Part shown: positions 11,850-51,207 of the stretch, one piece after another
Layout: each line of letters opens with the position of its first letter
Position numbering within the stretch: position 1 is the stretch's first letter
Assembly (NCBI GenBank): GCA_964016885.1
Contig: OZ024757.1
Location: 30,628,001 to 30,692,000, forward strand
Direction of reading: 5' to 3'
DNA: 64,000 bases
Source of the DNA: Eledone cirrhosa
Lineage: Eukaryota
The notes under the pieces: generated by a model
The model's input: the letters and a program-made list of their open reading frames with translations, nothing else
What the model was told of the DNA's origin: nothing
Database searches by the model: none
Position numbers and translations under genes: made by a program

Positions 11850-11857
11850 GGCAACAG
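11840..11857. promoter_or_regulatory. Perfect 18-bp palindrome containing the RFX X-box consensus, overlapping the ELAV-B start codon
   Basis: CTGTTGCCATGGCAACAG is its own reverse complement; GTTGCCATGGCAAC is the optimal RFX site. Function is inferred. Confidence 0.5.
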
Positions 11858-12335: not shown

Positions 12336-15300
12336 TTAATTGATAACCCACTCTGTATTGACATACTCCAGTAATTAACCAGAATTTACCAATAGAAAGA
12401 TTTCTAGAGACTAAACTGCCCAGCAGAATGAAAATTCTTCAAGATACTGATGTTTATATCCATTACCAATATTTAACATACCAGTACACAGTGTGGAAGT
12501 GGTTGGCACTAAGAAGGACACTCAGTTGCCTGTTTAGTCTCAGTGTGACAACTTAACTAATGTAAAATGGTGATGATTGTACATCTTGCTTGAATAGCAA
12601 CCAATGGCCCCCTCTGCAATATAAAGGAAAAGACGAAATAGTCCTACATAACCCAAACAATGTGAAGCTGTCAAAACTGGAAAGATTTGATCAATCAATT
12701 GAGCCGAGGTTAAAACAACTTGAGAATGAATATCAGGAAATAGTCACAGGTAAGAACATTTCTTCCATTCCATATCTAAAATAATATGGGTAAAAACCAG
12801 AAGGAAACAACACTTTTTAAAATTAGCAAATCAAGATTAAATATTTACAGCCTATGCAGTTGTACCCCTTAGATTAGGCATGACAAACTGAGGGTCACAC
12901 ACTTCAACTAATATTTTTTATTTTATATTACACTCCTGCTGTAAAAACTTCTGTGCAGGTGTGTGCTTGGAAAGAAGGGCTGCATGTTTGACATGCCTGC
13001 CCTAGATGGTTTAGTGATAAGGGCTCTACACTGATGTAAGTTTAGTTTGTCTGCTACGAGGTTGCTTGGGTGTTTTAATAATAGCTTTTCACGATAAGAC
13101 TACAATCACTATGTAAAATGTAGTGTCTTGCTGAAGAACAATAATATACCTGATCCAGGAATCGAACGCACAACCTTATAAACAACAATGAGCCTAACCA
13201 CTAAACTGGTTATCCAAATACCCTAATCTAACAGCCTGTTGTTACTGATGGGAGGTTAAGCCTTTCACTACTTTACAGTTATAATAATAGCAAGCCTAAA
13301 AGGCCCTTCAGCTAATGTTGATGATAATAAAGACAGCTTGAACAGAACTAGTATTTATTCAACTTAACATACGCAGCAGCAAACTTCATATCATTGATTT
13401 ATTGTCATTAATAGAAATAAACAAGTATACCCTCCCTCATGACGCAAATTGGTGATTTACCATCAATTATTATGGGCACTGAAATAACAAAAGTAATAAA
13501 TTTAACCCGTTTGATATCAAACTGCATATTTATCTAAAGAAAATAACTTTCCATCATAATTTTATATATAAACACTTAATACCAACTAAATGTCGCCCAA
13601 TTCTTGATGATTTGAAAATAAAACTATATGTCAGGTTGATTTGAGTAAGAGTGTATTAAAAAAAAAAACTCGACAATGGTTGCCTGGAAAATACATAACT
13701 TTTGTGCTATGTATCTCCTATTATTATATCTGTAGTGGGAAGAAATGACACTTTCATTTCATAATGAATAATATAGTGTTACTTTAAATTTAGGACACTT
13801 AAACGAAACTTCTTGATCTATATAATTCTCAACGAGATACACTCTTTCAATCAACCAACGAAGAATTTTGACGGACTTATTAGAATTATTGATTATTTTA
13901 TTACTAAGATAATAATTTTAACATATGGTTGTCGGAAGATTTTAATCTAAATAGGAACCCTGTAAAACGGGTGGTTTTGTTTCACAGAACCAGAGCCGGT
14001 CTCTATAGTGTAAAGTTTGAAAATTTAAAAATAGCAAGTTGGCAACGGTGAGGGGAAGTTATGTTATAATAATAAAAAAAAAAAAAAAGGTTTTCTTTCG
14101 GTAACGGATTGCTGGCTAACCCTGCGGGCAAGCATTATATTACACGTTTTAGGAGGGAAAAATACCAGGGAGCGGGATGTAAGAAAGCAGGACACCGCCA
14201 CCAACAAATACACTACACAACCAGCAGTTACAAGATCGTTGAATGAACGATACGCAAAACGTAAAAAATGTTTCACATCTGGTAACTAAATCAAGTACAA
14301 CTATCAGCCCTTTCGTTACCATATTTCTGACGAATGATAGATACTGATACATAATTTTCAAATCGTTTTGAAATAAATAATAAAAGAACTTTGGAGGGAG
14401 CTTTTTTAAAGTAATATAACAAAATCACACATTGCTAAGTTGGTGTCTGGGAGCATAACTTTAAGAAGATAAATATAAACACTTTTGTATCGTAGAACGA
14501 GGGGCAGTTTCGAACTGTTTGGTATGATATAGTTTAGTTTAGGAAGACAAAGACTAACTAACAACAACACAAAATACAACGAAGCAGACATCAATACATT
14601 TTCATATTACAAATCAGGGTAGAAAGGGGAGGTAAGAGAGGGGAGGGGAGAGAAGACAGATAGAATTGCGCAGGCGCAAACTAACGGCAAGTCACCAGAA
14701 AGACGTGAAAGAAAAGTTGTAAAAATGTGCTTCAGACTGGCAAAGCTAAGCTGGTTATTCAGCAGCAATATGTGAATGAATAATAATAAAATCAGAGAAG
14801 GGAGAGGAGTCATTGCATGTTACATAATAAATTTTAGTTTCAACTAAGTGTTTAATAACTACCCTACTTTTTTTGTGTGTGTGTACTTAATTCTCCACCG
14901 GCGCCGCATCATCACAAGCAGAGCATCGTTTTGAAATTTAATAAACACACTACTCTTTTGTATAGATTATTTTATATGTTTGCTGTGTGCACTAACGTGG
15001 AGAGATTTGATTCTTCATCGGCGCCACCGCTTCATCACAAACAGCATCGTTTGACATGTCTCTTCACATATACAACATAAAACATAATATATATACTATA
15101 AACGCCAACAATTTGTTGTTTTTTTTTTATCTGACAGCATCACCTAAATTATATCACTACTTATTTTATATTTACATGCATTGTTAAACAAGACGTGTAC
15201 GATAATCCCAAGCTTTGTAACATCTACACTGAGTATTACGTTGAATAATGGTCGTACAGGTCTCAATTACACGATGGAAAAAAGACTTAAGAAGGCAAGG

Positions 15301-17820: not shown

Positions 17821-20464
17821 ATGTTTTAGAAATAAATGAAAACAAAAAAAATTCGTCTGAGAGAAAGAGAAAAAGAAAGAATAAGAAGAGAGTTGTAGAA
17901 TAATGAAGAAAAAGATATAAACAGCTATAAAATACGAGAGAGAAAAGAATCAAAAAGATAGAATGAGAGAGGACAAAAGATGTGGCTATAGAATGAGAGG
18001 GAGTCAAAAGGATAGGGGATGGATAAAGAGTTGGAGTAATAAAAGAAGAGAGAGGGTGGACAAAGAGATAGAATAATAGAAGAGAATAAAATAAAAAAGA
18101 GGGCAAAAAATATAAAGTTAATAAAATAAAGAAAAAAAGTAAAAACAAATCGAGGGAAGCCGAAATGACAGAATAATAGAATGAGAGAGTAGGAGGATGA
18201 CAAATAGATAAAGTAAAATGAATGAGTGAGGAGGAGAACAAATAGGATATATTAATAGAACGAGAAGGGAGGGAGAGTTATTTCTGTAACAGGAAGTTGA
18301 GTAAGGGAGATTACTGTGTTAAACCTACGGTATCTTCCCTTTGTGTTGTTCTTGTTATTAAAAGAAAGAATCGTAGAATTTTTCAAGTTTGAACAAAGCA
18401 ATTGAGTTTAAGCAGTCGAAGCTTTGTGACACATTCTCACATGTTATAAATTTGACTGACAACTTTATACATATGTAAACAGCGATCTGTAAGCAAGTAT
18501 CTATACAAACATATAAAGATTCCCGCTCCGGGGAAACAGTATTGAGCCTCAAACTGTTACACCGAATTTTCGGGGAAGGGGTCTGAATTTAGAAATTTCA
18601 AATTGGCTAATTAAGGGATTCAGTAAGGGTCACATATTGGCAATTATTATCATTATGAGATATACATATTATCAAAGAAATAAAAACAACAATAATAATT
18701 GTTTAATTAATAACAAGGGCCGAAAGTCATTGAAGGATTTCAGGGAGTAAATCTGAGATATTAAGGGATATCGTTTTCATCCTATCCACCCTCCCCTGTA
18801 ATCAGTACACGATTTCAGGTGTAGTTTGGAATTAGTGTGCAATTATCGTTCTAACTACACAAATTTTCTCGGTTTGTTTCAATGTAATGAGGTAAACATT
18901 CTAGATGTAAATTTGTTTTAGCATAGTAAAAATTTATGATAATGGGTTTTATTACAATTGTATAAATTTACATAGAAGTATTCGAAATGTCTTATTATTG
19001 ATAAATGAAAATGTTTGTTTATTGCCTTCATCACAACAACGCCTCATAGATTTAATAGTGCGTCTTCTATAAGCACATCCATCTATTGAGGGGGAATAAT
19101 TTATAAACATAAAGACTTTGATCGCATTCGAATGAGAACATACACACACTAATATGCGTACATAAAGATACATACAAATATAAGCATACATAGATATACA
19201 CAAATATAAACACTCACACACACACATATACATACACAAGCACGAACTCGGTATTCAGACGAAACTAAGTGATATTGTGGCATTCGACAACGAGGCTAAA
19301 ACCAGAGACAAAAAAATCCTAATTCCCTCCCTTTGTTAAGGTGTCGTTAACGAAGGACCAAGTGCGAGAACGGATGTATTTGCACAAACCAAAGCATATT
19401 TATATTCTCCGTTGGTGACCGGAAACATCTAATTTCTAAATGTAATTCTTATCAACTCAGTTAACATAATCGGAGGATTTTGTATCCTATTTATATTTGA
19501 ATATGATTATCGACTCTATTTAGGTTATGTTATTAACACATCTACACCAACCTGCTAATTTCTCACGACTACTGTATGTCTCTTTAACAAATAGATTCGG
19601 AAACATCTTCTATATTCTCAGGTATGTACTGTTATGTACCCCAACTAAGATTTCTGATATTTTCGTTAATATTTATTTTATTCTATTAATGTGTGTTGCC
19701 AATTCAATCAGCAAAACCGATTTTGAGTCCCAAAAGAAATCATTTCACTTTTACGTGTTTCGAATGAGGTTTGTAGAAAAAATCTGCAGTTTACTTTGAA
19801 TTTAACCAGTTAAATTATTAACGTTGAAACTAAATAAAAACGGGCGGATCTTAAAATATACCCTTATGTAAACAATCTCAAAATACGAGGGGGAGATCAT
19901 CGTAATTCTGATACTATGCGAAAGAGGAGATTGAGATTTGTAGGCCATTGCAATCGTGCCTCAAAATGAAGTTGTGACTCCTTTAGTGATTTGGGAACCC
20001 AACATCTGCTAAAAGCAAAAGCGGTCGCAATCTCTCCTATGCTGATACCAATAGCCCTAGACACTAGTATTGTTGTTCGGGATCCAGGAAATGCAATGAG
20101 TGACAGACCTACGTGGAGATCTGTTACTGACGACGATGATGATGATTATGTAAACAATAACAAACGATTTATTTTCGAACATAATTTAACTTGCAGAAGT
20201 GAGGTGAATTAAGTTTACAGCAATCGGAAGAATTTTTATCCATTTATGTGACCAATTCCTTTTGAATAGACTTGAAAACTGCATATTCAAATTTATTACT
20301 GTGTATGTTAATGTGTATGAAGAAGCTGTTTTGTTGATCAAACAAGTGGAGCAGTCATCGTCGAAACCAACGGAGATCCATTCAATTTCATTCCACACGA
20401 AGCAAAATTTTTCTTAACAAAACTACGTTGATTTCTTCTTCCAGTTGATAGTTGACATGTAAAG

Positions 20465-20569
20465 ATGAGTGTCTCCCAGTTTAGTGAACCACAGGCAGGT
20501 GGTGACCTGGATCTCTACGATGATATTCTCCAGGAAGACTTTGATTGCCAGAAGGAATCTCTTGATGAG
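20465..20569 (+). CDS. CASP8AP2: FLASH/CASP8AP2-like copy A, coding exon 1 (LDLY motif)
   Basis: MSVSQFSEPQAGGDLDLYDDILQEDFDCQKESLDE, comparable to vertebrate FLASH LDLYEEIL; acceptor TTCCAG at 20444, donor GAG|GTAGGT, phase 0; same structure in copy B. Confidence 0.8.
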
Positions 20570-20939: not shown

Positions 20940-21270
20940 CATCCATTTTACAGAGTGGACTGTGCTCTTTATTCTGGCACAAGTACTACCACCTTACAGG
21001 GTTGACTGTGCTTTTATTATGGCACTAGCATGATCACTTTACAGGGTTGACTGGGTGCTCTTTATTGTGGCATCAGCACTACCACTTTATAGGGTGGGCT
21101 GGGTGTATTTATCGTGGCATCAGCACTACCATTTTACAGGGTGAACTGGGTGTATTTATTGTGGGGCCAGTACTTTCATTTTACAAGGTGGATTGGGTGC
21201 TTTTATTGAGGCACCACAGCACTACCACCACCTTACAGGGTGGACTGCGTGCTTTTATTGTGGCACTACC
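20940..21270 (+). repeat. 48-bp minisatellite, about 7 degenerate units (intron 1 of FLASH A)
   Basis: Recurring accactttacagggtggactgggtgcttttattgtggcac unit, same family as 60063-60945. Confidence 0.85.
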
Positions 21271-21364
21271 ACTGCCTCTATATTCCTTGAAATCCCCAAG
21301 ATAGTTACAGATGAAATGTATTTGATCACAGGTCTGCTATGTCAAAGTTGACCTGGGGCTAAAT

Positions 21365-21665: not shown

Positions 21666-21856
21666 TTACAACAGAAATACAAGGAAGCTATACAGAAGAT
21701 CGCTATTTTGGAAACTACTGTGAAAGAGCGTACATTGTCTCTTGAATCATTGGAGAAGAAAAACATATACTTACAGAAGAATATATCAATGTTGTACAAA
21801 ACTGCATGCACAGAAATCAAGAGAAAAAATGATATTATTCAGTCTTTAAGAGAGCA
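21666..21856 (+). CDS. CASP8AP2: FLASH-like copy A, coding exon 2 (coiled coil / Lsm11-binding segment)
   Basis: TTTAG acceptor, CA|GTAAGT donor, 191 nt; LQQKYKEAIQKIAILETTVKERTLSLESLEKKNIYLQKNISMLYKTACTEIKRKNDIIQSLREQ resembles vertebrate FLASH [23 protein letters not shown] (recalled sequence). Not in the ORF track. Confidence 0.85.
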
Positions 21857-22765: not shown

Positions 22766-22871
22766 ATTAGACACCCATAAAAAAGAAAACTATGTGAAAA
22801 AATCGCAATCTGGATACTCTAAATGGAATGGTGATTCTCAGAGAAACATCAAATCCTCTCGAAATTATTGA
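22766..22871 (+). CDS. CASP8AP2: FLASH-like copy A, exon 3 start, ending in an early TGA (133-aa spliced product)
   Basis: TTTCCAG acceptor, phase 2 compatible with exon 2; LDTHKKENYVKKSQSGYSKWNGDSQRNIKSSRNY*; homologous to the start of copy B exon 3. Confidence 0.7.
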
Positions 22872-23466
22872 CGTAACCCTTATAAAAAAAAAGGACATCC
22901 CTTTCTCCCCCCCCCATCTTATTTTGACAATATTTATTCACCATTTCATTCTGCGTAAGCTTTTAGTCACTCAAGTATTAAACATAAAAAAAGTAATTTG
23001 CATCAACAAAATTGAAAGCTAACTCTTATTCTACTGCTACTAATGTGCTGGCTGCAAAGTTGATGCCTTCTGATTCACTATGATCTCCTATATTTGAAAA
23101 AAATCACAGGTTCTGTACAGACTGTCTAAGAATTTGTGACATCATTTGCTACAAAATCAAAATGAAGTCATGTCAGATATGAAACAGAAGAAGAAAATAT
23201 GATTGATAAAAGTTCATGATAAAGATTTTCTCTGTACAACATCTGTTCCCTGAGTGTACTGGTCTGGGAGAATCTGTTAGTACAAATATAACTGACCTGC
23301 TTGCACTCATGATCTTATAAAACTTATATAAGAAAGTAAATATTTTGATTCAAGAAACATTAAACAGGACACAAGAACAACAATCGCAGTGATCAAATAT
23401 TTCCAAAAATAAAAGTGAAAAGAAATATAGAAAGTATTCTGATGTTGAAACTAATAACTCAAGAGA

Positions 23467-24513
23467 GTGGATGTAGTTGAAGCAGTGAAGATGTCAACTC
23501 AACTGTCAGCAAAATCTGCAGGATCTCATGCAAACGGGACTAAACCTTCTCCAACTTCTGCTGTTGCTGCTGGTGTTGATAAATTTTCTCCCAGTGATAA
23601 ACATTGCAGTAAAATGTATGATCCAGTGTTAGCTTCCTCACTAGAAGTACCAACTAAATGTGAGAGAAATCTTTCCACACCTGTTGTTCCACAAACGTGT
23701 AAAACCTCAGTAGCATTGAATAGTCAGGAAGACATAGTTATTAACTGCTTTGGTAGATCTAATCCAGAAGATTCTCATTCTCCTATAATTATTCGTTGTT
23801 TTTCTAACAGTATGACACATTCAGAGCTAGCTGAATCAACAAGCAGCAAAATTTCTGATTATGGTGATTCTACACCAACAAAGGAAACAATTGTTCGTAA
23901 ACTGTTCTCACCAAGTAAGCCTGATTATGATTTATCGGTGGAAAATCAAATCCGAGATGATATGGGAGCAAAGAATCACAGTCTTGACTTTCTCAATGAA
24001 ATGAAGAAGAAATTATCGCAGGAAATTGCTGCTCATAACAGAAGACAACAAGATGAAGATTGTTCTTCAGATCTAACACAATTAAATGATATCTGTGAGA
24101 ATGATAAAGATACATATTGTAGTAATGATAGTGTGAGAGACGATGAGAATTTTCTGAAAACATATTCTCCTCATGCACAGACTGATTCAGCTACAAGTAC
24201 TCGGCAGTCTGAAGGTGATTGCGTAGACTTAGAAGAAGGGGAGATTGTAAGTGATGATGATGATGATGATGATGATGGTGATGAGGATGATGATAAGGAG
24301 GAGGAGGAGGAGGTGGTGGTGGAAGATGGTGAGAGAGAAGAAACTTCCAAGGAGGAATTTTCCGATAACATTAAACATGAAAGTAAACACACTTCAAAAC
24401 AAACTTCCAAAAGAAGGAAGATATCAGGGTGTAAGACATTGTCTAAAATTAACAATAAACAGAATGACAACTCTTCAGGACATGAAAACAAAAAACGAAG
24501 GGTTGACCGGTGA
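23467..24513 (+). pseudogene. CASP8AP2: Disconnected C-terminal reading frame of FLASH-like copy A
   Basis: Nearly identical to copy B 37850-38836, including DLEEGEIVSD and KKRRVDR*; separated from the N-terminus by a stop and about 600 bp of degenerate sequence. Could still be reached by unrecognised splicing. Confidence 0.6.
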
Positions 24514-24769
24514 GGACGGAGTGCTGAGCTAATGTTATTTTTTAACGATATATTATTTAAGTAAAACTGAAATTTATCTTCCTCTTCCTCCTGTTCATGA
24601 TATTGTATATGTCTGTTTATATTATTCACATGTCTTTAACAACAATATATTAAAATATACTTCAATATGTTCAGGTATGCATCATAATTATGAAAGTAAA
24701 AATTAATTTTGTTGCTGGACACGTAAAGCATGATAAAATATGATATATGTGTGTGTGTGTGTTTAAGTC

Positions 24770-26240: not shown

Positions 26241-28249
26241 ATTAGACAGTAATATTTCCTAAATTTGTTGCTGGTGCAAAAACTATTCACACCCTGTTTA
26301 CTTACACTAGTCACCGTGCATGGCTTCTCACAGCAGAGATCATGAATCAATGTCTAACGAAACACAGCAATTATTTTGCTCATAATTGTTGATATGAAGA
26401 AATCAGAAATAAATGACATTGTTAATGATGAAAGACTGTCTTTTCTTTTGTTGTTGCGTTTATCTAGACATAAATTTTTACTAAAGAAATATACTATCTA
26501 CAAACAGTGTTAACCACACAATTTATTTCCCATAAAATTACACACACAAAACATTGGATGGGGTGGATTAAAATGTTTTTCTTTAATTTTTTTATTTTGC
26601 TTGCTTGTTTGTTTGTTTGTTTTTCATTTTCTGAAAATAAAAAAAAATTCTATATTTCAATTTACTTAACATAATGAGTGTAAAACGAACTCAGTTCCTA
26701 AGCTGAGCTGTACAAAGAGATGATGCACACAAAAATACCAAACAGCTTTGGATAACTCCCCAACACCACACCATCACCACCATATACATTCGCAAGCAGA
26801 CGATAATTATAAACTGTAGGGCAGAAGATGATGGTGCCCCCCCCTCCTCCTCCTAGTAACTCTCACCACCCTTCCACCTCACCTCACACGCTCTTTTCAG
26901 GCAATAACGTGCACTATCGTACGACAATTTCCATTCCCCGATCTATTTCTCTTCAAATGTTTTTATGTATACATATTACACTGTCTTGTGTTTAGAAGTT
27001 GTTATTTTCATGCATAAAAGTGGTTGTATTGCTTGTTTGTTTTTTTTTTGTTTTGTTTTTAGTTTGTTTCTTTTGTTGTTGTTCTTTTTTTACGCCCAAT
27101 AAAAAAATAAATTCCGTCGGAACGTATCTTATATCATAATATAAAAATAGGTTTCGAGTTGCGACAAGATTTTCAGGGACGCAATACTTTCGTAACGCGG
27201 GGAATTCCTCGTCTAGACTGTGATCTCATCCTACATACACGTACATACAGATATACATATACACACGCGTACATAAACACATATACAAGTATATATATAT
27301 GTACATAAGCATACATAAACACACATACAAGTATATATATAATCCTTATCGAGCCCTCTTCCGATTTTAATCTTCATAATTATTATTACTATATATATAT
27401 ATATATATACACACACATAGACACGTACATATACACAAACAAATAAGCATACGTATACACGGGTATTCAGACACGCATACAAATATTTGCACACGTGTAC
27501 ACACATATATGTATATGTGTGTACACGTGTGCAAATATTTCACACATAAATAGACACATGAAAATATAAGTATACACACGCACCCCCCATTCACCCAGGC
27601 AGATACGGTATTGAGTCGAAACTAAGCGATATCGTAACATTTCGACAACGAGGCTAAATTAAGCCAAAAACAAAACAGAAAAACCCGCGTAATTTCGAAG
27701 TCAAACCACAAAGGCCGGAATGGATTGTATTCATGATAGAATGTGTTTTTATATTTTTAAAATTTCATTCTAGACAATTCAATTAACATTATCGGATAGT
27801 TTATCTCTCTATCTTACTTGCAAGTTTTATCTTAACATTCCAATGTAACTACCCGTTAATTGTAAATATATTATTTGATATAAATTAAATATCAATTGAG
27901 TAGATTATCGCCACCACATCAACCTCGTCTCAAACCCTTAGTATATTTGAATACCAAATATATTTGGAAACAACCTATATTTTTCAGGTATGTATTATTG
28001 TCTCAACTAAGACTTCCGATCATGTTTTTTGTTTTAGTGTTTATATTACTGTATCAATTCACAAGTTCTGTTCGACTGTGTCAAACAGGATATGTACGTG
28101 TGTGTCCGAGTATGTCTGAAGCTTGATCTGTTGAAGGGGACCTCTTCGACAAAATCCCAAACCTCATTCGCTTGCCAAGTGAGGTGGGCCTCGTCAAATC
28201 AGACCAAGTCTTTCCATTGCTGCTACTATCCACCGGTCGCAACTCCTGG

Positions 28250-31161: not shown

Positions 31162-31922
31162 TTAACCCTTTAGCATTTATATTACTCTATATATACTATT
31201 GTATTTTTGTGGTAAAGGCTTTATCTCACATAATATTGGATCTATGAGATTTTGATATTAATCTTGAGAACAATACCTTCCCATAAGTATGAGTAGCCAG
31301 TTATAGCCGATTCGAACAGAAAGAAGTGAGAATTCTTGCTGGACATGGCTGGTTTAAATGCTAAAGGGTTAACGGACAATGGCCATTGACACCTACCCCA
31401 CCTCATAGGGCTCCTTCCTTGGACAAGCTGCTTTTTTAACATAATTTAACCCTTTAAGCATTTAAACTGGCCATATATCCGGCCAGCATTCTCTCACTTC
31501 CTTCTGTTAAAACCAGCTGTAACGGGCCACTCATACTGATGTTAAGGTATTGTTCTCAAAATAAATAATATCAAAATCTCATAGATTCAATATTATGTGA
31601 AGTAAAACCATTACCATGAAAATACAATAATAAATATAGAGTAATGTAAATGCTACAGGGTTTACATGCTGACGTGAGGTGCATTAAGTTTATAGCAATT
31701 TATATCAGTTTTGAAGAAATTTTGTCCATTTAACCCTTTAGTATTTACATTACTCTATATATACTATTATATTTTCACCTATCTCACATAATATCGAATC
31801 TATGAGATTTTGATATATATTTTGATAACAATACCGTAACATCAGTATGAGTGGCGTGTTAAAGCCAGTTTGAACAGAAAGAGGTGAGAGAATTCTGGCC
31901 GGTTTAAATACTAAAGGGTTAA
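31162..31922. mobile_element. Three piggyBac-type MITEs of about 190-210 bp in alternating orientation (31166-31368, 31450-31660, 31734-31918)
   Basis: TTAA-CCCTTTAGCATTTA ... TAAATGCTAAAGGG-TTAA: TTAA duplication and CCC/GGG termini; empty sites are visible in the paralogous copy A region at 20180-20255. Confidence 0.85.
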
Positions 31923-32130: not shown

Positions 32131-32235
32131 ATGAGTGTCTCTCAGTTTAGTGAACCACAGACAAGTGGTGACCTAGATCTCTATGATGATATTCTCCAGG
32201 AAGACTTGGTTTGTCAGAAGGAATCTCTTGATGAG
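32131..32235 (+). CDS. CASP8AP2: FLASH/CASP8AP2-like copy B, coding exon 1 (LDLY motif)
   Basis: MSVSQFSEPQTSGDLDLYDDILQEDLVCQKESLDE; acceptor at 32110, donor GAG|GTAGGT; 105 coding nt as in copy A. Confidence 0.85.
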
Positions 32236-32451
32236 GTAGGTAAAACAATACATTTCTTAAACATATTTTTACTTTTTTGTTCCCCCCAAACTCTGATACT
32301 CATCAGACCAGTTCTTATCCCAGTTTCCTCACCTTTAAATGCACAGTGCAAGTGATAGTTTGGTTCAGAAGTTTGCTTCATAAATACATGTTTCTTTTTT
32401 AAGCTTGTTTATACTGAGTAATACCTTGAGCAAATATCTTTTACTAGATCT

Positions 32452-32840
32452 TTAACCCTTTGGCATTTGAATTACTCTATATATATACTATTGTAGATAG
32501 AAACACAAATTTCAAACTACTAAATTTCACTGAAAAGACTTCAGTCAACTTAAGGATCTGGTAAAAGATATTTGCTCAAGGTATTGCTTAGTATGAGCAA
32601 ACTTTAAAAAAAAACATGTATTTATGATTCAAACAGTCACTTGCCCTCTCTGTCATTTAAACTGGCCAGAATTCTCTCAGCTCTTTCTGTTCAAACCAGC
32701 TGTAACTGGCCACTCCTACTGATATTAAGGTATTGTTCTCAAAATAAATAATATCAAACTCTCATAGATTACATTTTATGTAAGATAAAGCCTTTACCAT
32801 GAAAATACAATATAGAGTAATGTGAATGTTAAAGGGTTAA
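32452..32840. mobile_element. TTAA-MITE pieces in intron 1 of FLASH B
   Basis: ttaaccctttggcatttg at 32452 and a reverse copy ending aaagggTTAA at 32840. Confidence 0.65.
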
Positions 32841-32905: not shown

Positions 32906-33096
32906 TTGCAACAGCAATACAAGGAAGCTATCCAGAAGATTGCTACTTTGGAAAATACTCTGAAAGACCACACTGTGACTATGGATACACTGGAGAAGAA
33001 AAACACTTACTTACAAAAGAATATATGGAGTCTCTACAAATCTGCACATGCAGAAATAGAAAGACAAAATGCTGATATTCACACTTTAAGAGAACA
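32906..33096 (+). CDS. CASP8AP2: FLASH-like copy B, coding exon 2 (coiled coil)
   Basis: TTTCAG acceptor, CA|GTAAGT donor, 191 nt; LQQQYKEAIQKIATLENTLKDHTVTMDTLEKKNTYLQKNIWSLYKSAHAEIERQNADIHTLREQ. Confidence 0.85.
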
Positions 33097-33174: not shown

Positions 33175-33660
33175 GCCACATCAAAAAGCGCCCAGTCCAC
33201 TCTGTAAAGTGGTTGTGTTTGTGAAACAACAAAAAGCACCCAGTTCATTCTGTAAATTGGTTGTGTTGTGGATATGACAAAAAGCACCCAGTCCACAGTG
33301 TAAAGTGGTCATGTAGGTGTCATGACAAAAAGCACCCAGTCCACATTGTAAAGTGGTCATGTAGGTGTCATGACAAAAAGCACCTAGTCCACACTGGAAA
33401 GTGGTCATGTAGGTGTCACGACAAAAAGCACCCAGTCAACTCTGTAAAGTGGTTGTGTTGGTGACACTTCAAAAAGCGCCTGGTTCACACTATAGTGGTT
33501 GTGTTGGTGAAACGACAAAGAGCACCCTGTCCATTCTGTAAAGTGGTTCTGTTGGGGATATGACAAAAAACACTCAGTCCACTCTGTAAAGTGGTTGTGT
33601 AGGTGTCAATAAAAAAGCACCTAGTCTACTCTGTAAATGTAGTTGGCATTATGATGGGCA
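33175..33660 (-). repeat. 48-bp minisatellite, about 10 units, reverse orientation
   Basis: aaaaagcacccagtccacactgtaaagtggtcatgtaggtgtcatgac units. Confidence 0.9.
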
Positions 33661-34235: not shown

Positions 34236-34872
34236 TTGAAGTAAACAACATGATGGAATTGGATCTCTCAACACTAAACTATCTTATCATCATCACCGTT
34301 TTATGTCCATTCTTCCACGCTAGCATGGTTTAGACGGGTTGTCCTGTTGTGGGCAGTGTCCAGTCGGCTGACCTTGTCTTGCTTATACGGGAACTGATTC
34401 TGGTGTCCACTTTACAGTGTGGGCTGGGTGCTTTTTGCTGTCGCACCGCCACGACCACTTTGCAGTGGGAGGGGGTGGGAGCATATTGTCTATATGCTTT
34501 AGCTTCGGCTTGTACCTGTGGGAAGTCGGGTTTTCTGTATTACTGCGTGACGCCAGAGGTCACGGTCATGTGTCATTGCCCTTGAGAGGTGCAATTGGGT
34601 AAAGTCGGGTTTTATCGTCTCATCTTATATCCATATAAATCAAGTTAACAGGGTGTAGAACATATTTTTTATGTATTTCTTTGCTATATATGTGGTTGGT
34701 GTTAGGAAGGGCATCCAGTTGTGAAAAACCCAGCCAAAATACAGTTCTGTTTGAGCAAGGTACGGGGCGGTCAGTTGGCCAGATTTGTCTCATAATGTGA
34801 TCGACCCATGAAAAAAATAGTTAAAAAGTGATGATGATGATATATTTATTTGATATTTGTTCCTCTTTCTAG

Positions 34873-37800
34873 ATTAGACTCATGTAATAAAGAAACTTTC
34901 ATGAAGAAACCACAGTTAGAATATTCTAAATGGAATGGTGACCCACAAAATCCACAGTCAGAATATTCTAAACACAATGGTGACCCACAAAATCCACAGT
35001 TAGAATATTCTAAATGGAATGGTGACCCTCAAAATCCACTGTCAGAATATTCTAAATGGAATGGTGACCCTCAAAATCCACAATTGGAATATTCTAAATG
35101 GCATGGTGACCCTCAAAAACCACAGATGGAATATTCTAAATGGAATGGTGACTCTCAAAAACCACAGTTGGAATATTCTAAACACAATGGTGAACCTCAA
35201 AATCCAGAATTGGAATATTCTAAACGGAATGGTGACCCTCAAAATCCACAATTGGAATATTCTAAATGGAATGGTGACTCTCAAAATCCACAATTGGAAT
35301 ATTTTAAATATCATGGTGATTCTCAAAAACCACAGTCTGAACATTTTAAACACAATAGTGACCCTCAAAAACCACAGTTGGAATATTCTAAACACAATGG
35401 TGACCCTCAAAATCCACAATTGGAATATTCTAAACGGAATGGTGACCCTCAAAAACCACAGTTGGAATATTCTAAACACAATGGTGACCCTGAAAATCCA
35501 CAATTGGAATATTCGAAATGGAACGCTGACCCTCAAAAACCACAGTTGGAATATTCTAAATGGAATGATGACCTTCAAAATTCACAGTTGGAACATTCTA
35601 AACACAATGGTGACCCTCAAAAACCACAGTTGGAATATTCTAAACACAATGGTGACCCTCAAAAACCACAGTTGGAATATTCTAAACACAATGGTGACCC
35701 TCAAAAACCACAGTTGGAATATTCTAAACACAGTGGTAACCCTCAAAAACCACAGTTGGAATATTCTAAACACAATGGTGACCCTCAAAAACCACAGATG
35801 GAATATTCTAAACACAATGGTAACCCTCAAAAACCACAGTTGGAATATTCTAAATACAATGGTAACCCTCAAAAACCACAGTTGGAATATTCTAAACACA
35901 ATGGTGACCCTAAAAAACCACAGATGGAATATTCTAAACACAGTGGTAACCCTCAAAAACCACAGTTGGAATATTCTAAACACAATGGTGACCCTCAAAA
36001 ACCACCGATGGAATATTCTAAACACAATGGTAACCCTCAAAAACCACAGTTGGAATATTCTAAACACAATGGTAACCCTCAAAAACCACAGTTGGAATAT
36101 TCTAAACACAATGGTGACCCTCAAAAACCACAGTTGGAATATTCTAAATGGAATGATGACCTTCAAAATTCACAGTTGGAATATTCTAAACACAATGGTG
36201 ACCCTAAAAAACCACAGATGGAATATTCTAAATGGAATGGTGACCCTCAAAAACCACAGATGGAATATTCTAAATGGAATGGTGACCCTCAAAAACCACA
36301 GATGGAATATTCTAAATGGAATGGTGACCCTCAAAAACCACAGTTGGAATATTCTAAACACAATGGTGACCCTCAAAAACCACAGATGGAATATTCTAAA
36401 CACAATGGTAACCCTCAAAAACCACAGTTGGAATATTCTAAACACAATGGTAACCCTCAAAAACCACAGTTGGAATATTCTAAACACAATGGTGACCCTC
36501 AAAAACCACAGTTGGAATATTCTAAATGGAATGATGACCTTCAAAATTCACAGTTGGAATATTCTAAACACAATGGTGACCCTAAAAAACCACAGATGGA
36601 ATATTCTAAATGGAATGGTGACCCTCAAAAACCACAGATGGAATATTCTAAATGGAATGGTGACCCTCAAAAACCACAGATGGAATATTCTAAATGGAAT
36701 GGTGACCCTCAAAAACCACAGTTGGAATATTCTAAACACAATGGTGACCCTCAAAAACCACAGATGGAATATTCTAAACGGAATGGTGACCCTCAAAAAC
36801 CACAGTTGGAACATTTTAAACGGAATAGTGATTCTCACAAATCACAGGCGGTACATTCTAAATCAAATGGTGAGTCTCGAAAACCACGGTTGGAATATTC
36901 TAAATGGAATGACCCTCAAAAACCACGGTTGGAATATTCTAAACGGAATGGTGACCCTCAAAAACCACAGTCGGAATATTCTAAATGGAATGACCCTCAA
37001 AAACCACATATGGAATATTCTAAACGGAATGGTGACCCTCAAAAACCACAGTCCGAATATTCTAAATGGAATGACCCTCAAAAACCACGGTTGGAATATT
37101 CTAAACGGAATGGTGACCCTCAAAAACCACAGTCCGAATATTCTAAATCAAATGTTGATATACAAAAACCACAGTTAAAATATTCTAAACGGAACAGTGA
37201 CTCTCGAAAACCACAGTTGGAACATTTTAAACGCAATGGTGAGTCTCGAAAACCGCAGTCGGAATATTATAACCGGAACAGTGACTCTAAAAGGCCACAT
37301 TCAGAATATTCTAAATGGAACGGTGACTCTCAGAGAAATATCAAACCTCATCAAAGAGATTCCAGGCGAAATGAAAGAAAAGATTCTAAAGAAAACAAAA
37401 GGAAAAGTTCCAAATATTGTGATATCGAAAATGCAAAATATTCTGATAAATCCAGATCTAGATATTCTAGCTCAAGGGAGCAGAGATATGGAGAAGAAAG
37501 ATATGAGAGAAAACTTTCATGTCATCGAGATTTGCAAAATTCTGAAGCAAAAAGAAACAGATCTTTAGAAACAAAAGCAAGACATTTCACAAAGAAGAGT
37601 AATTCTTCTAGTACAAATGTAGAAAATTCCTCAAATGAACACAGGAAGTTAGATACAAAACAAAATGGTCGCCAAAAGCCATCTTCATCCTCACAAAAAT
37701 CATATGTGAGTTATGTGCAAACAAAATGTCGTAGTGCTCCACTGAGAGAGAAGCAAAGTGTACATAATGATTGCTATGAGATTGGTAATACAACAAGACA

Positions 37801-38836
37801 TCATTCTAAATTAATTGATTGTCAGCAGTCTGTTATTGAAATATTGAAAATGTCAACTCAACTGTCAGCAAAATCTGCAGGATCTCATGCAAACGGGACT
37901 AAACCTTCTCCAACTTCTGCTGTTGCTGCTGGTGTTGATAAATTTTCTCCCAGTGATAAACATTGCAGTAAAATGTATGATCCAGTGTTAGCTTCCTCAC
38001 TAGAAGTACCAACTAAATGTGAGAGAAATCTTTCCTCACCTGTTGTTCCACAAACATGTAAAACCTCAGTATCATTGAATAGTCAGGAAGACATAGTTAT
38101 TAACTGCTTTGGTAGATCTAATCCAGAAGATTCTCATTCTCCTATAATTATTCGTTGTTTTTCTAACAGTATGACAAATTCAGAGCTAGCTGAATCACCG
38201 AGCAGCAAAATTTCTGATTATGGTGATTCTACACCAACAAAGGAAACAATTGTTCGTAAACTGTTCTCACCAAGTAAGCCTGATTATGATTTATCGGTGG
38301 AAAATCAAATCCTAGATGACATTGGAGCAAAGAATCACAGTCTTGACTTTCTCAATGAAATGAAGAAGAAATTATCGCAGGAAATTGCTGCTCATAACAG
38401 AAGACAACAAGATGAAGATTGTTCTTCAGATCTAACACAATTAAATGATATCTGTGAGAATGATAAAGATACATATTGTAGTAATGATAGTGTGAGAGAC
38501 GATGAGAATTTTCTGAAAACATATTCTCCTCATGCACAGACTGATTCAGCTACAAGTACTCGGCAGTCTCAAGGTGATTGCGTAGACTTAGAAGAAGGGG
38601 AGATTGTAAGTGATGATGATGAAAAGGAGGAGGAGGTGGTGGTGGAAGATGGTGAGAGAGAAGAAACTTCCAAGGGGGAATTCTCCGATAACATTAAACA
38701 TGAAAGTAAACACACTTCAAAACAAACTTCCAAAAGAAGGAAGATATCAGGGTGTAAGACATTGTCTAAAATTAACAATAAACAGAATGACAACTCTTCA
38801 GGACATAAAAACAAAAAACGAAGGGTTGACCGGTGA
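34873..38836 (+). CDS. CASP8AP2: FLASH-like copy B, giant exon 3 (tandem 14-aa repeat, basic Ser/Lys/Arg region, DLEEGEIVSD motif, acidic tract, KKRR tail); spliced product about 1419 aa
   Basis: TTTCTAG acceptor at 34872, in frame with exon 2; 3964 nt open. The end is either TGA at 38834-38836 or a CG|GTGAGG donor at 38833. Confidence 0.8.
34907..37333 (+). repeat. Coding minisatellite: 58 units (55 x 42 bp + 3 x 39 bp), consensus KPQLEYSK(H/W/R)NGDPQ
   Basis: Unit aaaccacagttggaatattctaaacacaatggtgaccctcaa; span 2427 bp = 55x42 + 3x39; no frameshift or stop. Confidence 0.95.
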
Positions 38837-39064
38837 GGATGGAGTGCTGAGCTAATGTTATTTTTTAACGATATATTATTTAAGTAAAACTGAAATTTAT
38901 CTTCCTCTTCCTCCTGTTCATGATATTGTATATGTCTGTTTATATTATTCCCATGTCTTTAATAAGCACATATCAAAATATAACACACAAGCACATATAT
39001 ATATTTGTGCGTTTATATATGTACATATATTTGTATGTATATATGTATGTGTACATTTCTTCTT

Positions 39065-40622: not shown

Positions 40623-43548
40623 GATGGGGTTTTCCTCTGGTGGCTATGGTGGACGGGATTAAAAGGTCTGAGGACAGACACCTTGCCTTCTTTAAATACC
40701 ACTTCTGAAGGAAAATGAGAGTGGAGAGAGATGTGCTGCACCCCAGTAAATTCGCTGAAAGGTGGGTGACAGTCAAGCCAAACAATACATCACGTTTGAA
40801 GAAAAGTGTGGGTTCAAAATAAATTCAACCCCGGAAATTCGCGGCCAGACTCTGAGGAAAACGATAATTTTCAGGACTGTCTCCAGCAGCACCAGGAATC
40901 CAGCATTTCTCAGTCAACTTGAAATAGAAACAGTGTTGAAGGAAGCATTGCTGGACATCGATTTCATGCAGAGGGCCAGACAGTATGAAAGCATTTTGGT
41001 GCTTCTCAAAAGCGAAGCCCTCGCACAAAAATATTCGGTGACTCTGGTCACTTCTGCAAACTACACCTTTTTCCCTACATACCTGGGATAATAGACACAA
41101 AAAATATAAATCTCAAATATACCACCAAATATCAATATTTGGTGGATTTTGGCTGGATTTTTAGAGGAGGCAGAGGACACCATCCTCTCCATCAGAAAAT
41201 CAACCAGACACACGTGGGCTGGTACCAGTTTGGAAGTTTTGGTACAGATGAAATCAGAATTTTTAAGAATCCGGAAAGAGTACCAGTAGACACCAACAAC
41301 CACATAAACATTTCTACTGAAGAGAGGAGGCCTCACTGCTTTCGATGTTCCAGCACATTGCATTTAAAGGCCTCCTGTCCTTTACAGACAAACTTGAACA
41401 AAAACAAAAAAGTACTCTTACGAACACCACAACAACAACAACACACACAAAACAAGCAAACACACAAAAACAAACAACTACTCAACCACAAACAACAGAA
41501 AAAACAGACAATTCCCCTGAAAAACAGTTCCACCCCATCCCACTCCATCCAACACTACCACAACCACACCATCACCACACAATATATGTCTCCCACAAGC
41601 CTCTGATGACGATTCATCATCAGACAAGGCTACTTCTCCATCCCCAAGCGAGAATGAAGGAGAGCCTCAGAAATCAAAAAAGACACCACAAAGCCACAAA
41701 AACACCAATCACCAACACAAACACACAACCACCAACACAAACAACACCCCTACCAGCAAAACAAACACCAACACCACCCCAAACACAAACACCCACCATA
41801 AAAAGAAAACTACAAAATGAACAACAAACAAAAACAACACAAAAATATAAACAGCACACATACGTTAACACCAATAACAAAAACCTGATGATGGTCATCT
41901 CCAAAGACCCCAAAGTAGAAACTGAGGGGAAAACTTTTGTCAAAGTAGGCATGGCACCACACCTAAAATTGATAAGGGTTTCGGTGGAAACCTACCAGAA
42001 ACTCAAGGGTCAATTTTTGTAGGACGTCGGGAACCCGTGCCCAAAACCCATTAACCGCGTCCTCTTGAAACGTTTCCCCACCCCACCCAGCACCCAAATG
42101 GAGATTGAACAACCTGATCTCCAAGAAACGAAAAGGTAAGTGCATCTTTTCGTCCTTTTCGCCGACTCTTCTCCACCAACATGGCCGATTTATGAGTTGG
42201 AAGTGTGAATGTGCGTGGCCTAGGGATGTCCTGGAAACAGGGCCAACTTTTAAACGACTTTAGGTCACACGATATGGATTTGATAGCCATCAGCGAGTCC
42301 AGGATCCACAACAAGCAGCAACTAACCCCCATCTTTGATGACTTTGAGATCTACGCATCTCTCTGTCAGCCAAGAGGTGGAGGGATAGTGGCTGTTATGT
42401 TTCGGAAAAACCTGGACCTCGAAATACAGCAAATACACTTGGACTCGGAGGGTAGACTGGTGGTCCTAGACATGAACAGTGTTGGAGGTGGCCATTTATG
42501 CCCTAACGGACATCGCGGCCAGACTTCTTTAAGCGTCTAGAGTCTTTTCTGGGAATGTCTTGCTCCTTGCTTTTAGTGGGGGACTGGAATGGTATCCTAG
42601 ACGTACGATGGGACTATGTAGGAACATGTCTCAGTAGAGGGGGGTGCAACAGCCTCAAAAATTTAATTGGCCAATTCCAACTGGCTGATAGGTATCACCT
42701 AGATTTCCTGACTGCACCACAGTGGACATGGACAAACTGCAGTGGAACATCTAGATCATATTTAGATAGATTCTTAATTAGAGAGAGAGACAGGAAAATG
42801 TTAAGCTGTCCACAAATGTACATGGTTGCCTATTCAGACCACAAACTAGTCACCTGCATAGTCAACCATGATAGAACGCATAGACTAGGACTCGGATACT
42901 GGAAACTGAACATGTCGTTATTGACTCATAAAGCCTACAGTAGACGGATAAGTAGTTTAGTTAAGCACCAGTTGACGGGAGCCATCATCAACAGGAGGTG
43001 GTGGTGCTCTCCCAAGAGAACAATTAGAGTAGACTCCATAGCTTTTAGTAAAGAACTAGCTTTAGAGAAAGATAAAACAGAAAGAAAACTGGTAGCCAAG
43101 GTAGAGGAGCCGCTTAGGAGTGTCAACGCAGTTAGAGTGCTAGCAACGAAAACGGCACTGGGCCAGTTGTTCGATGTGAAACACGAAGGCTGCATTGTCA
43201 GGAGTAGATCACATGCTCTAGGAAACGAGGGAGGAAAAGCTGTTAGCTGGGCCTGAGTAGTAGAAGTGAAAAGTGGCAAGAAGTCAACGATTCGGTCTTT
43301 GAAAGACCAAAATGGACGTGTGCTACTTGATTCCAGGCAGATGTGCACGGCCTTTCAGTGGCACTTTGTGCAACTGTTCGAGCAGAGCGGTGTGCTGAAC
43401 GAGACAATGGACTTCGGTTCATACCTCAACGGTCTACCGGGTCTCGAGCATGGACGGCAAGTTCTGCGAAAGACTGATCACAGCCACTGAGATACAGGAC
43501 GCTCTAGGCTGCTGCGGGAAACGCAAATCATCCGGTCTAGATGGCCGA
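40623..43548 (+). mobile_element. Tx1/L1-clade non-LTR retrotransposon relic: ORF1 with zinc knuckle and ORF2 APE endonuclease, RT missing
   Basis: CFRCSSTLHLKASC (CX2CX4HX4C) at 41337-41378; ORF2 motifs NVRGL, DLIAISESR, LVGDWN, YLDRFL, SDHKLV, GYWKLN; ends at KSSGLDG; several frameshifts and stops. Confidence 0.85.
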
Positions 43549-44013
43549 TATTATGTGGGATACTATGGCTGATTTGAAAAGAAAGAAAGAAAGGAGTAAG
43601 AGAATTCTGGCTGGATACGGCCGGTTTAAATGCTAAAGGGTTAAAGCAAGAAAGTCTGATTATTAACTACTTAAATGTATCAAAGGTTAATAGAAAATAT
43701 TTAGAGAGATTAGCAACAAATACACAAGGTATAGTTACTTTTCCACAAAATTATGGCTTACTACAACATATTTGACTTTGTCTGAATTGTGGGGAGGATA
43801 TGAAACTCACTGAAGACCTATTTACAATTTACTATTGTATTTTTGCAGTAAAGACTTTACCTCACATAATATCGAATCTATGAGATCTTGATATCATTTA
43901 TTTTGAGAACAATACCATAACATTAGTGTGAATGGCGAGTTAGGGCTGGTTTGAACAGAAAGAGGTGAGAGAATTCTGGTGGGATATGGCTGGTTTAAAT
44001 GCTAAAGGGTTAA
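43549..44013. mobile_element. Two partial TTAA-MITE copies
   Basis: Both end in ggtttaaatgctaaagggTTAA (43644, 44013). Confidence 0.7.
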
Positions 44014-47008: not shown

Positions 47009-47625
47009 TCAGCATGTACCCATGGGAGGTCGGGTACCCTGTATTACTGCGTGACGCCAGAAGTCACGGTCGTGTGTCATTGACTTTGAGAGGTGTAGTT
47101 GGGTAAGGTCGGCTTTTATCACCTCATCCCAAGTCATCTTGGGTCTCCCCACTCCGCGGTTTCCATCAACTTCTAGTGCTCTGCACCTTTTTATGCAGCT
47201 GTCATCCTTCATACGCATCACATGTCCATACCAGCGTAACCGCCTCTCCTGCACGCAGCATTTGATTCCTCTTATGCTCAGTCTCTCTCTCAATTCATTT
47301 ATGCTTTGTCGTTCACGTATATTACTGTTACACATCCATCGGAGCATGCAGGCTTCGTTTCTCTCTAATCTACGTAAGTCTTCCACCTTCAGCGCCCAGG
47401 TCTCACTACCATGCAACATCGCTGTTCGGATACACGCATCATACAGTCTGCCTTTCATTCTGAGGGAGAAGCCTTTTGCAGCTAGCAGTGGTAGTAGTTC
47501 CCTAAACTTCTTCCATCCCGTTCTTACCCTAGTTATTGTACTTTCTGAGCACCCACCTCCGTTGCTAATTCGGTCACCTAGGTAGCAGAAGCTGTCTACT
47601 GTTTCTACAGGGCCCTCCCAGAGAT
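47009..47625 (-). mobile_element. RTE-like LINE 3' fragment with the frame still open
   Basis: VDSFCYLGDRISNGGGC..WKKFRELLPLL..MLHGSETW..LRWYGHVMRM..GRPKMTWDEVI; the 3' tail continues towards 46720 and recurs at 34290-34620. Confidence 0.9.
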
Positions 47626-47691
47626 TGTGTGTGTATATGTATATATATATATATATGTGTATATGTATATATATATATATATGTGTATATG

Positions 47692-47743
<52 letters not shown>

Positions 47744-47902
47744 CAATTAAATTCATATGTAGATATGTCACTATCTGTAAACCAATTATTGTATTTTATC
47801 TGACGATAGCTACCAAAATACTGGTACCCTTGAAATATATATAATAAAATAAATATGGTTTTATAAAGATAGTTTCCACTTATTAATATTATTGATATAT
47901 AT

Positions 47903-48872: not shown

Positions 48873-49234
48873 AACTCCTGAGATGTGTAGCATCAACTGC
48901 AAGAAACCAGTGAATCATATGATTACCTCACCAATCAGAGAGACCTACAGGACAAATAGATTTTGTTTTCACCAGGATATGACATAAACGGTATAAATAC
49001 CAAGTTGTTCCCCCTCCTAACACAGATTAGTTATCAATGACTTCACAGTTAGAGCAAGAGAAACCTAGAGACTGAAGCTTATCATCATCATTTAATGTCC
49101 ATTATCCACACTAGCATGGATTAGAAGGGTTTATCCCATTAGAAGCAAGTTGGGTCAGGTGACCATGCCTTGCTCATATAGGACAGTTTCTGGCTAGATT
49201 TCTACGGCTGGATGTCCTTCCTAACACCAACCAC

Positions 49235-49470
49235 TGGGTGCTTTTTGCCATGACACCTACACGACCACTTTACAGGGTGGGCTGGGTGCTTTTTGTCGTG
49301 ACACCTACATGGCCACTTTACAGTGTGGGCTGGGTGCTTTTTGGCGTGACACCTACATGACCACTTTACAGTGTGGGCTGGGTGCTTTTTGTCATGACAC
49401 CTACATGACCACTTTACAGAGTGGGCTGGGTGCTTTTTGTCGCGAAACCTACATGGCCACTTTAGAGAGT
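49235..49470 (+). repeat. 48-bp minisatellite, about 5 units
   Basis: Same family as 60063-60945. Confidence 0.9.
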
Positions 49471-51207
49471 GAGGATGGTGTATGGGGATGTGGGGGTTAT
49501 CTGGAGAAGAAAGACATGGAAACTGGAAGAACCCTCAGCTGGCAACAAATTCAGAGAAATCCTACTAAGTACTTACATAAAAAAAGGAAGACGAGATGGA
49601 GAATTATTATATGATAAAAGAAAATTTCTCTGAAACAACCTTAGAGCCACGGACCACGACTGCAGTTGGAGCCATCACTAGATGGTGATTTACACAAAAA
49701 GAATTCAGTACAGTCAATAAAGTGATTGGTGTTAGGAAGGGCATACAACCATAGAAAGCTTGCCAAATAAAGGGTTGGAAGAAGCTTTCAGCATTGACAA
49801 AGACATGACAACCTCTCTAGTGTTTGTGTCATGATAAAATGCATTTGGTACAGTGTGAATTGTATATAAGCAAGATGTGTTCCACACACCACAGACTGGT
49901 TGATCTGAGACAGTCATGGGCAATCTGTGGCCTGTTTGGCTTTCTGAATGGCACACCTAATTTGAAAATTGCATTGAATTTTTTAGTAGTGAAGCCCACC
50001 TTACGATGAACCACATCCTTTGTGGTTCATTGCTCGATAAAGGTTGCCCATGCTTGATCTAAGAGATCAGTATCCCCTGCATCAGGACTGACTCGTTGCT
50101 AGCAGGGAAAAACGGACGTTAAATGATGATGACGATGATGATGATGATGGTGGTGGTGACGATGATGATGATGGTGGTGGTGGTGGTGACGATGATGAGT
50201 TCATAAAACAAATCAATAAAAGAGTCGAAAAGAAGAAAAAGGTGTATGTATGTGTGTGTGTGGGCAGAACGAAGTTAGACCATGGGGAGCCCAGGGCACT
50301 TCAGTTTTGGGGTGGGGGTCCCTCATATTAAAAAAAATTAGAGTACACAGCGAATGCCCAATTTCACATCAAAGTTAGCTTGGCGTAAATAATTGGAATT
50401 GAAAAATTAATTATACTGGTATTAAATTCCAAAAATTTAACCCTCCTAAAACTAAAGTGCCCAGCTGAGGACACAAATAAATTGCTACGGCAGTTGCCCC
50501 CCTCCTCCCCAATGAAAAAATGTAACCCCCCAAAACGGAGAGAAATGAGGCAAAATGGGAAGATTTTACATAATGAAAGCTATATCCATTTTCACAAGAG
50601 AAGACATCTCTCACCCACATCACAGTGGGTAGGAGATCTCCCCGTCGGATGGGGGAGAGTTGACAGGTCTGCCGTCACGAACATCGTTTTATATATTACT
50701 TCAATGAAACGAGCCGGCAACGATGACAAGAACTTCGTTGTCATCGGTCTAAATCCAACCCGCAAGCCCACTTCACCACCACTACCTCTAACCCCATTCA
50801 TCCCTGAACAATCTAAAATATGGAACACTTTGCGTGTCACCCTTACCCAAGAGCCACTCTAATCTCTATATCGTTCCAGTTTTAAAATATGAACTGTGCA
50901 GAGTAGGAATTTCAAGATATCGGTAGAATGTTTATTTCAATGTATATACAAAGAATATTCTTGAAAACACATTTCAAACTAGGAGTGAACAAAATTTGAA
51001 TAAATATTTTGACTTTATACATGTACTTCAACTGTCAATGTACGTCGAGTCTTCCTATTCCAGAACACGTATCTTTTACTGTATGTATGTATACACACAC
51101 ATATATACACATATATATATATATACAGTGTGTGTGTGTATAATATATATACATGTGTGTGTATATGTAATATCTATGTATATACACACATACATATATA
51201 TATTTAT

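Follow-up and report, generated by a model that had tools for sequence, protein, structure and literature searches.

A one-to-58-unit coding minisatellite in a FLASH-like gene of Eledone cirrhosa, probably a tolerated disordered spacer

FLASH (CASP8AP2) of human and Drosophila carries an N-terminal LDLY motif, reported to bind the cleavage complex HCC (PMC5636114), followed by a coiled coil (human residues about 53-137), a long disordered body and an EEGEI-type motif, called FARB in human, that is described as binding ARS2 and as following the pattern [ED][ED]GE[ILV] (PMC5923425, PMC9402713). A SANT/Myb domain at the C-terminus is reported to bind NPAT (PMC7432317, PMC10730174). The middle of the protein appears to be deletable, as in the fly FLASH-mini and human miniFLASH (1-200 + 1751-1982) constructs: fly FLASH with an internal deletion of 547 of its 844 residues is reported to rescue viability and fertility, with small processing defects remaining, and an N-terminal fragment (residues 1-178) is active in vitro, where it processes alone (PMC4896052). 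The 64,000-nucleotide stretch of the E. cirrhosa genome analysed here (the window) holds two tandem paralogues, copy A and copy B, that resemble FLASH in the N-terminal LDLY motif and coiled coil, the long disordered body and the EEGEI-type motif. It differs from the human and Drosophila systems in that an 809-residue repeat directly follows the coiled coil of copy B, in that the NPAT-binding SANT/Myb domain was not detected, and in that one of the two paralogues is only 133 residues long.

Coding minisatellites (VNTR proteins) share an in-frame unit, diverged edges, a homogeneous core and higher-order block duplications, a pattern that growth by unequal exchange typically leaves behind, and those lying in disordered linkers form a common class. 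While the usual examples belong to surface or structural proteins, the array described here sits in a nuclear RNA-processing scaffold.

Copy B encodes 1419 residues in three coding exons (Table 1). A sequence-only reading of this DNA had assigned it to FLASH, and several lines of evidence agree that it is at least FLASH-like. The LDLY/LDIY motif is present in both copies, the N-terminal coiled coil is recognised most clearly in the Octopus sinensis orthologue (P0001; E=1.8e-5 against PDB 6AOZ, the solved structure of this domain in human FLASH), and an EEGEI site is found in copy B by sequence match only. In the ESM Atlas, the cluster nearest to the O. sinensis orthologue is 'C8AP2' (0.91, 167 shared features), while exon 3 of copy B gave no usable match there. 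The SANT/Myb domain, however, was not found. Pfam reported none in exon 3 of copy B or in four scanned Octopus proteins, an AlphaFold model covering the C-terminal 514 residues of copy B (7-sequence alignment) contains one confident helix and no three-helix bundle, and none of 172 frames of at least 30 aa on the + strand downstream of copy B matches Myb; a domain whose coding sequence is divided among short or distant exons would escape these searches. A further coding exon past the CCG/GTGAGG site at the copy B stop was considered but gained no support, as the orthologues end there too and the downstream frames lack a Myb match. Since no SANT/Myb domain was found, copy B is best filed, on its sequence, as FLASH-like by virtue of its N-terminal domain and FARB motif rather than as a canonical full-length FLASH, and for the same reason its residence in the histone locus body is hypothetical. 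The conserved helix between the array and the FARB-like motif may, as modelled, serve as a binding element.

Table 1. Features of copies A and B, numbered from the first letter of the window
Feature	Position	Strand	Basis or remark
Copy A, likely non-coding first exon and promoter-side element (inferred)	19249..19621	+	A/B similarity (copy B counterpart 27606-27987); ends at CAG/GTATGT donor
Copy A, coding exon 1	20465..20569	+	LDLY at 20507-20518
Copy A, exon 2, coiled coil	21666..21856	+	PDB 6AOZ E=0.0065; dN/dS 0.40 vs copy B
Copy A, coding part of exon 3	22766..22871	+	unit 22800-22841; stop TGA 22869-22871
Copy A-specific segment, closed in all three frames	22872..23488	+	without detectable protein likeness to copy B linker
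3' block, copy A side	23489..24640	+	open frame 23458-24513, downstream of copy A stop
Copy B, coding exon 1	32131..32235	+	LDLY motif at 32173-32184
Copy B, exon 2, FLASH N-terminal coiled coil	32906..33096	+	PDB 6AOZ E=0.049, exon alone
Copy B, last coding exon, stop 38834-38836	34873..38836	+	collinear with Octopus orthologues to final residue
Coding minisatellite, 58 units, 809 aa	34907..37333	+	TRF, unit split
Higher-order duplication, units 27-35 / 36-44	35999..36754	+	378 bp each, 1 difference
Units 48-53, 13-aa and 14-aa units in alternation	36881..37123	+	
3' block, copy B side	37848..38965	+	98.7% over 255 codons, dS 0.018
Predicted helix (NHSL...RRQQDED), conserved	38333..38419	+	sole confidently folded piece 3' of array (AlphaFold)
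FARB-like ARS2-binding motif DLEEGEIVSDD	38585..38617	+	sequence match to human FARB and [ED][ED]GE[ILV]

Copy A carries the same N-terminal exons, but its frame closes nine codons past a single unit to give a product of 133 aa. This unit lies between KE..K and RNIK, exactly where the sequence-only reading had placed it. That reading took the neighbouring paralogue to preserve the single-unit state; the one unit is indeed there, but the paralogue is truncated rather than intact. The approximately 620 bp after the stop gave no significant tblastn match to the copy B linker, and the three frames of 22869-23490 contain 14, 17 and 15 stops. Splicing of the N-terminal frame to the open frame further downstream was considered as well and rejected, as the acceptors after the last in-frame stop reach a pyrimidine fraction of at most 0.45. 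Between the N-terminal exons of the two copies dS is 0.47 and dN/dS 0.35, as against a dS of 0.018 in the 3' block, which by these rates makes the A/B duplication old and indicates that the N-terminal domain of copy A is kept by purifying selection; of 110 N-terminal residues, 69-70 are identical to Octopus in copy A and 62-63 in copy B. Copy A is thereby a candidate for a natural N-terminal-only FLASH, consisting of LDLY, coiled coil and one unit with a stop in the last exon, whereas the mini-FLASH fusions are laboratory constructs that keep the C-terminal anchor.

Several contigs bear on whether copy A is transcribed in this form. In run X4, copy A-type contigs have a depth of 18.6-22.3 and copy B-specific ones of 2.3-2.5, while the copies are at similar depth in run X1; the kind of run is not on record for X4, and the depth of contigs reflects expression poorly. 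The longer copy A contig of X4 has 1307 letters 5' of the shared 3' block. If it represents a spliced copy A transcript, its end would fall at 19351, just past an element conserved between A and B, whereas a genomic reading of the same contig would have to pass through an AT repeat of 62 bp. The other copy A contig of X4 ends at 25232, 28 bases past ATTAAA. Judged by contig-length arithmetic rather than at the level of reads, this fits a polyadenylated copy A mRNA that is commoner than that of copy B and in which the early stop is retained.

From 23489 onwards, copies A and B are 98-99% identical over about 1.15 kb, while their 5' exons are only 78-92% identical. The open frame on the copy A side includes a FARB motif (24226-24258) and a poly-Asp tract, and a contig from another sample, X4, confirms the copy A junction at 23485; the copy B type of junction occurs in a contig of X1. 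Most likely the 3' block has been homogenised recently by gene conversion. In Octopus paralogue pairs a patch around the helix and FARB motif is likewise 92-98% identical, and over the 3' block a contig of another organism (organism B) has about twice the depth of its flanks; the pattern as a whole suggests repeated gene conversion.

With the 3' part of copy B exon 3 as query, a full HMMER scan returned 43 matches, two of which are true relatives, both from O. sinensis (E 1.5e-113 and 7.5e-101). The clusters of these two proteins include members from O. vulgaris, named CASP8-associated protein 2 in UniRef, and from O. bimaculoides. Four of the other 41 matches were inspected and are unrelated repeat or low-complexity proteins, and word-indexed homologue searches with copy B exon 2 and with the post-array part gave no match. 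The Octopus FLASH-like proteins (XP_029648977.2 of O. sinensis, CAI9738241.1 of O. vulgaris and P0050 of O. bimaculoides) are collinear with copy B outside the array, 53-54% identical to it 3' of the array and alike in their C-terminal end, and the two that were scanned have, like copy B, no Pfam match. They differ from copy B in their length of 613-627 aa, in a FARB-like site that reads EKGEI or ESGEI, and in having one unit at the array site, with no second unit in any of the three full-length orthologues. Given this single unit in three Octopus orthologues, the ancestral state, as far as these sequences go, is one unit and it is copy B that expanded. This is the direction the sequence-only reading had proposed; multiple units in outgroups, which it had named as the mark of a collapse in copy A, did not appear in the three species.

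The FARB-like site varies among the Octopus sequences (EKGEI, EKGGI or ESGEI in P0001, P0002, P0044, P0047 and P0050, vs EEGEI in the window), and ARS2 binding may differ between the Octopus proteins and those of the window. One O. vulgaris isoform (P0045) ends soon after the motif. The Octopus proteins annotated as 'protein PFC0760c' (XP_029649096.1, XP_014788062.1) carry the C-terminal block a second time, including a poly-Asp tract like that of copy A, and are annotated without an N-terminal domain; they may be orthologous to copy A.

The array itself comprises 58 head-to-tail units that encode 809 residues, in frame and stop-free, inside an open frame of 1331 codons (34841-38836). Both the splitting into units and TRF (period 42, 58.0 copies, score 3270) reproduce the limits and unit number of the sequence-only reading exactly, and its lengths in multiples of three, its stop-free 2.4 kb and its product of about 810 aa stand with them. 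Fifty-five units measure 42 bp (14 aa) and three measure 39 bp (13 aa; units 48, 50 and 52), the latter probably descending from a single 3-bp deletion that was copied three times. Stops number zero in the coding frame and from 3 to 126 in each of the other five frames. With unit lengths divisible by three within an open exon, the array is a coding minisatellite (VNTR). It contains 39 distinct units by DNA and 38 by peptide; the outermost are the most diverged, with up to 11 of 42 bases deviating from the consensus at the 3' end as against 2-5 in the core. The exact count depends on the assembly, being 58, or 49 if one of the 378-bp blocks is subtracted. In organism B, a relative whose 3' block is about 6% diverged, a 71-bp contig covers the boundary of units 57 and 58 with 8 differences, which hints weakly that tandem units are older than the split between the two.

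How the array has been maintained can be read from its units. Stops among the 53 distinct codon steps number zero, with about 3.6 expected (P about 0.03), and the unit length breaks the frame in 0 of 57 cases, whereas in six non-coding arrays of the window it does so in 14 of 78 (Fisher P=0.0003, the units not being independent). Fifteen of the steps are synonymous and 38 non-synonymous, giving an omega of 0.61-0.79 (P 0.08-0.26 vs neutral); this estimate comes from one count rather than a tree, counting undercounts recurrent changes, and with omega below 1 there may be mild purifying selection. Some positions are nearly invariant: position 6 is Tyr or His in all 58 units (Tyr in 53) and position 8 is Lys in 57, while position 9 is H in 24, W in 20, R in 10, Y in 2 and S in 2. 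YSKWN is kept in only 19 of the 58 units, although YS.WN is kept in copy A and in 3/3 Octopus orthologues; indeed, the ancestral unit is rather well kept, with 8 of 14 residues identical between copy A and Octopus vs 73 of 155 in the linker of copy B and O. sinensis. Taken from these counts, the frame of the array is protected and its residues change almost neutrally. Among the non-coding controls was another, unrelated 42-bp minisatellite of the window (53568-54608, 25 copies), whose unit lengths break the frame.

Aromatic residues make up 9.9% of the array (3-4% in the native linkers) and are evenly spaced with a period of 14 residues; the array is 29% charged and near neutral, with 12% Pro and 2% Arg. 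A disorder prediction, suggested as a check by the sequence-only reading, places it on the disordered side: its hydropathy of 0.26 lies far below the order/disorder boundary of 0.42, and four of five AlphaFold models of 12 units have a pLDDT of 27-36. The layout of regularly spaced Tyr, Trp and His in that reading holds for the spacing and aromatic content but not for Trp, which is retained in 20 of the 58 units; the many phosphorylation sites that it envisaged are present as 82 Ser and 56 Tyr, with no SP/TP site of CDK type among them. It also proposed a phase-separation prediction. Chain compaction has been linked to phase separation (PMC12002312), and the most compact 5% of human disordered regions are reported to have a scaling exponent of 0.477 or less (bioRxiv 2023.05.08.539815). 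We simulated single chains of 112 residues by a rough coarse-grained Monte Carlo (own code, approximate parameters). Three array pieces gave exponents of 0.515-0.541, native linkers 0.527-0.557 and the array with its aromatics removed 0.558, on a scale that is not calibrated to the published one and on which the low-charge positive control reached only 0.487. In this rough simulation the array has ordinary, non-compact coil dimensions and stays above the exponent of about 0.48 or lower of compact chains of the FUS or hnRNPA1 type; it is slightly more compact than the native linkers and expands when the aromatics are removed. The aromatics would give some stickiness, but the array as modelled does not look like a self-condensing region. 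The selected sticker-spacer polymer of the sequence-only reading fares poorly against a near-neutral omega, the partial retention of Trp and a compaction like that of a native linker.

Our preferred reading, to which we give a probability of about 0.6, is that the array is a coding minisatellite that serves as a tolerated disordered spacer rather than as a new functional device. One ancestral 42-bp unit would have grown to 58 in-frame units in paralogue B, likely through unequal exchange between units, and the array, predicted to be disordered, would now act as a spacer that sets the C-terminal motifs apart from the N-terminal processing domain. Selection would remove stops and frameshifts but care little for the residues of individual units, and the frame would be kept open because the C-terminal helix and FARB-like motif of copy B lie beyond the array and still have to be translated. 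The expansion may be tolerated because the middle of FLASH is dispensable, by analogy with the fly. A further reason is probably copy A, whose conserved 133-aa product is a second protein with LDLY and coiled coil and would relax the constraint on copy B. Counting against a spacer are the almost fixed residues at positions 6 and 8, the fact that copy A ends just past the unit, as if the unit were part of a minimal module, one AlphaFold model with a beta-meander, the slight compaction and the small defects of fly FLASH-mini.

It is possible, though we consider it unlikely, that the unit is a short conserved motif (YSxWN) or an aromatic sticker, and that its 58-fold display has been selected for multivalent binding or condensate partitioning, perhaps replacing the SANT/NPAT anchor. 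Such a role would suit the aromatic enrichment and even spacing, the conservation of YS.WN in copy A and Octopus, the undetected SANT/Myb domain in copy B and its orthologues and, weakly, the hint from organism B that tandem units are older. It is difficult to reconcile with the loss of YSKWN from most units, an omega of 0.6-0.8, simulated chains that are not compact and a composition rich in charge and Pro and poor in Arg. Moreover, the three Octopus proteins have neither an array nor a detectable SANT domain, so that in these species the array is not needed to offset the absence of SANT. More doubtful still is a scenario of divided FLASH, in which the 133-aa copy A would supply most histone pre-mRNA processing while multivalent contacts of the copy B array, in place of SANT-NPAT, would tether both copies to the histone locus body.

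We think it improbable that the array is missing from the protein as written, either because it is spliced out of the mRNA, which the sequence-only reading had named as fatal to its claim, or because it is largely a product of assembly. The near-identical pair of 378-bp blocks could be an assembly duplication. However, among 98 AG sites in the array and the next 370 bp, the best pyrimidine fraction is 0.60, whereas the four true acceptors of exons 2 and 3 have 0.60-0.85; the donors within the array are weak, and the protection of the frame implies translation. An assembly product would also not explain 39 distinct DNA units with graded divergence, and contigs of X1 and X4 join the 3' units to post-array sequence. 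The X1 contig, possibly from the assembly's own sample, covers at least 4 tandem units, continues into the coding sequence 3' of the array and shows 0 differences over 37250-37879; the RAD run X6, with 13 of 30 bins covered, gave no information.

An ordered array has even less in its favour, and we regard it as very improbable that the units fold into a single-layer beta-meander with a turn at the Asn-Gly of every unit. The fifth and best AlphaFold model is a beta-meander of ten strands (pLDDT 54, pTM 0.47), and Asn-Gly is common at unit positions 10-11, but the other four models have a pLDDT of 27-36, Foldseek with the low-confidence array model found no PDB match at E<=0.001, each unit contains two Pro and has a very low hydropathy, and amino-acid change among units is near-neutral. 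Finally, an ancestral multi-unit state that collapsed to one unit in copy A is hardly credible, since three outgroup orthologues with one unit would call for independent collapses, even though the copy A unit is 9-16 of 42 bases away from the copy B units and untraceable to any particular one.

The window contains a number of other features. Two convergent intronless genes at 4106-5050 (+) and 10887-11888 (-) encode three RRM domains each (Pfam RRM_1), which by their sequence pattern we take to be ELAV/Sex-lethal-like, possibly retrocopies. A short open frame at 12602-12751 (+) ends at a GTAAG donor and resembles an isolated exon, with no Pfam match. A family of 47-48-bp tandem arrays is dispersed over both strands (20943-21273, 33182-33645, 49234-49471, 58546-59371 and 60047-60948); its members often adjoin a common interspersed element and are probably part of a mobile element. 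Decayed LINE-like fragments lie at 40700-43570 (+) and 47009-47746 (-), with a weak endonuclease match at 42507-43253, and one frame resembles the end of a retrotransposon ORF. The introns around the first coding exon of copy B contain inverted pairs of a dispersed element of about 200 bp (31164-31662, 31479-31902, 32371-32634).

Our literature search, whose coverage was incomplete, found nothing on octopus CASP8AP2 or the octopus histone locus body, and no description of a FLASH repeat or of a natural N-terminal-only FLASH gene; the accessible part of a 2026 pathway survey (10.64898/2026.10.14.759114) makes no mention of molluscs. The expansion is real and well polarised, and its function is probably slight. 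If it is near-neutral, it provides a clean one-to-58-unit case in which the ancestral unit is still visible in the paralogue and the outgroups, and in which about 800 additional residues have been accommodated next to the active domain of an essential processing factor. Were the array to prove an anchor after all, it would represent a new way of building the histone locus body. Better leads than the array are the 133-aa paralogue and the missing SANT domain. The need for FLASH in the histone locus body appears to have been studied so far with engineered deletions (PMC4896052), and an octopod FLASH apparently without SANT/Myb, together with an N-terminal-only copy, would offer a natural test of whether FLASH has to be concentrated there.
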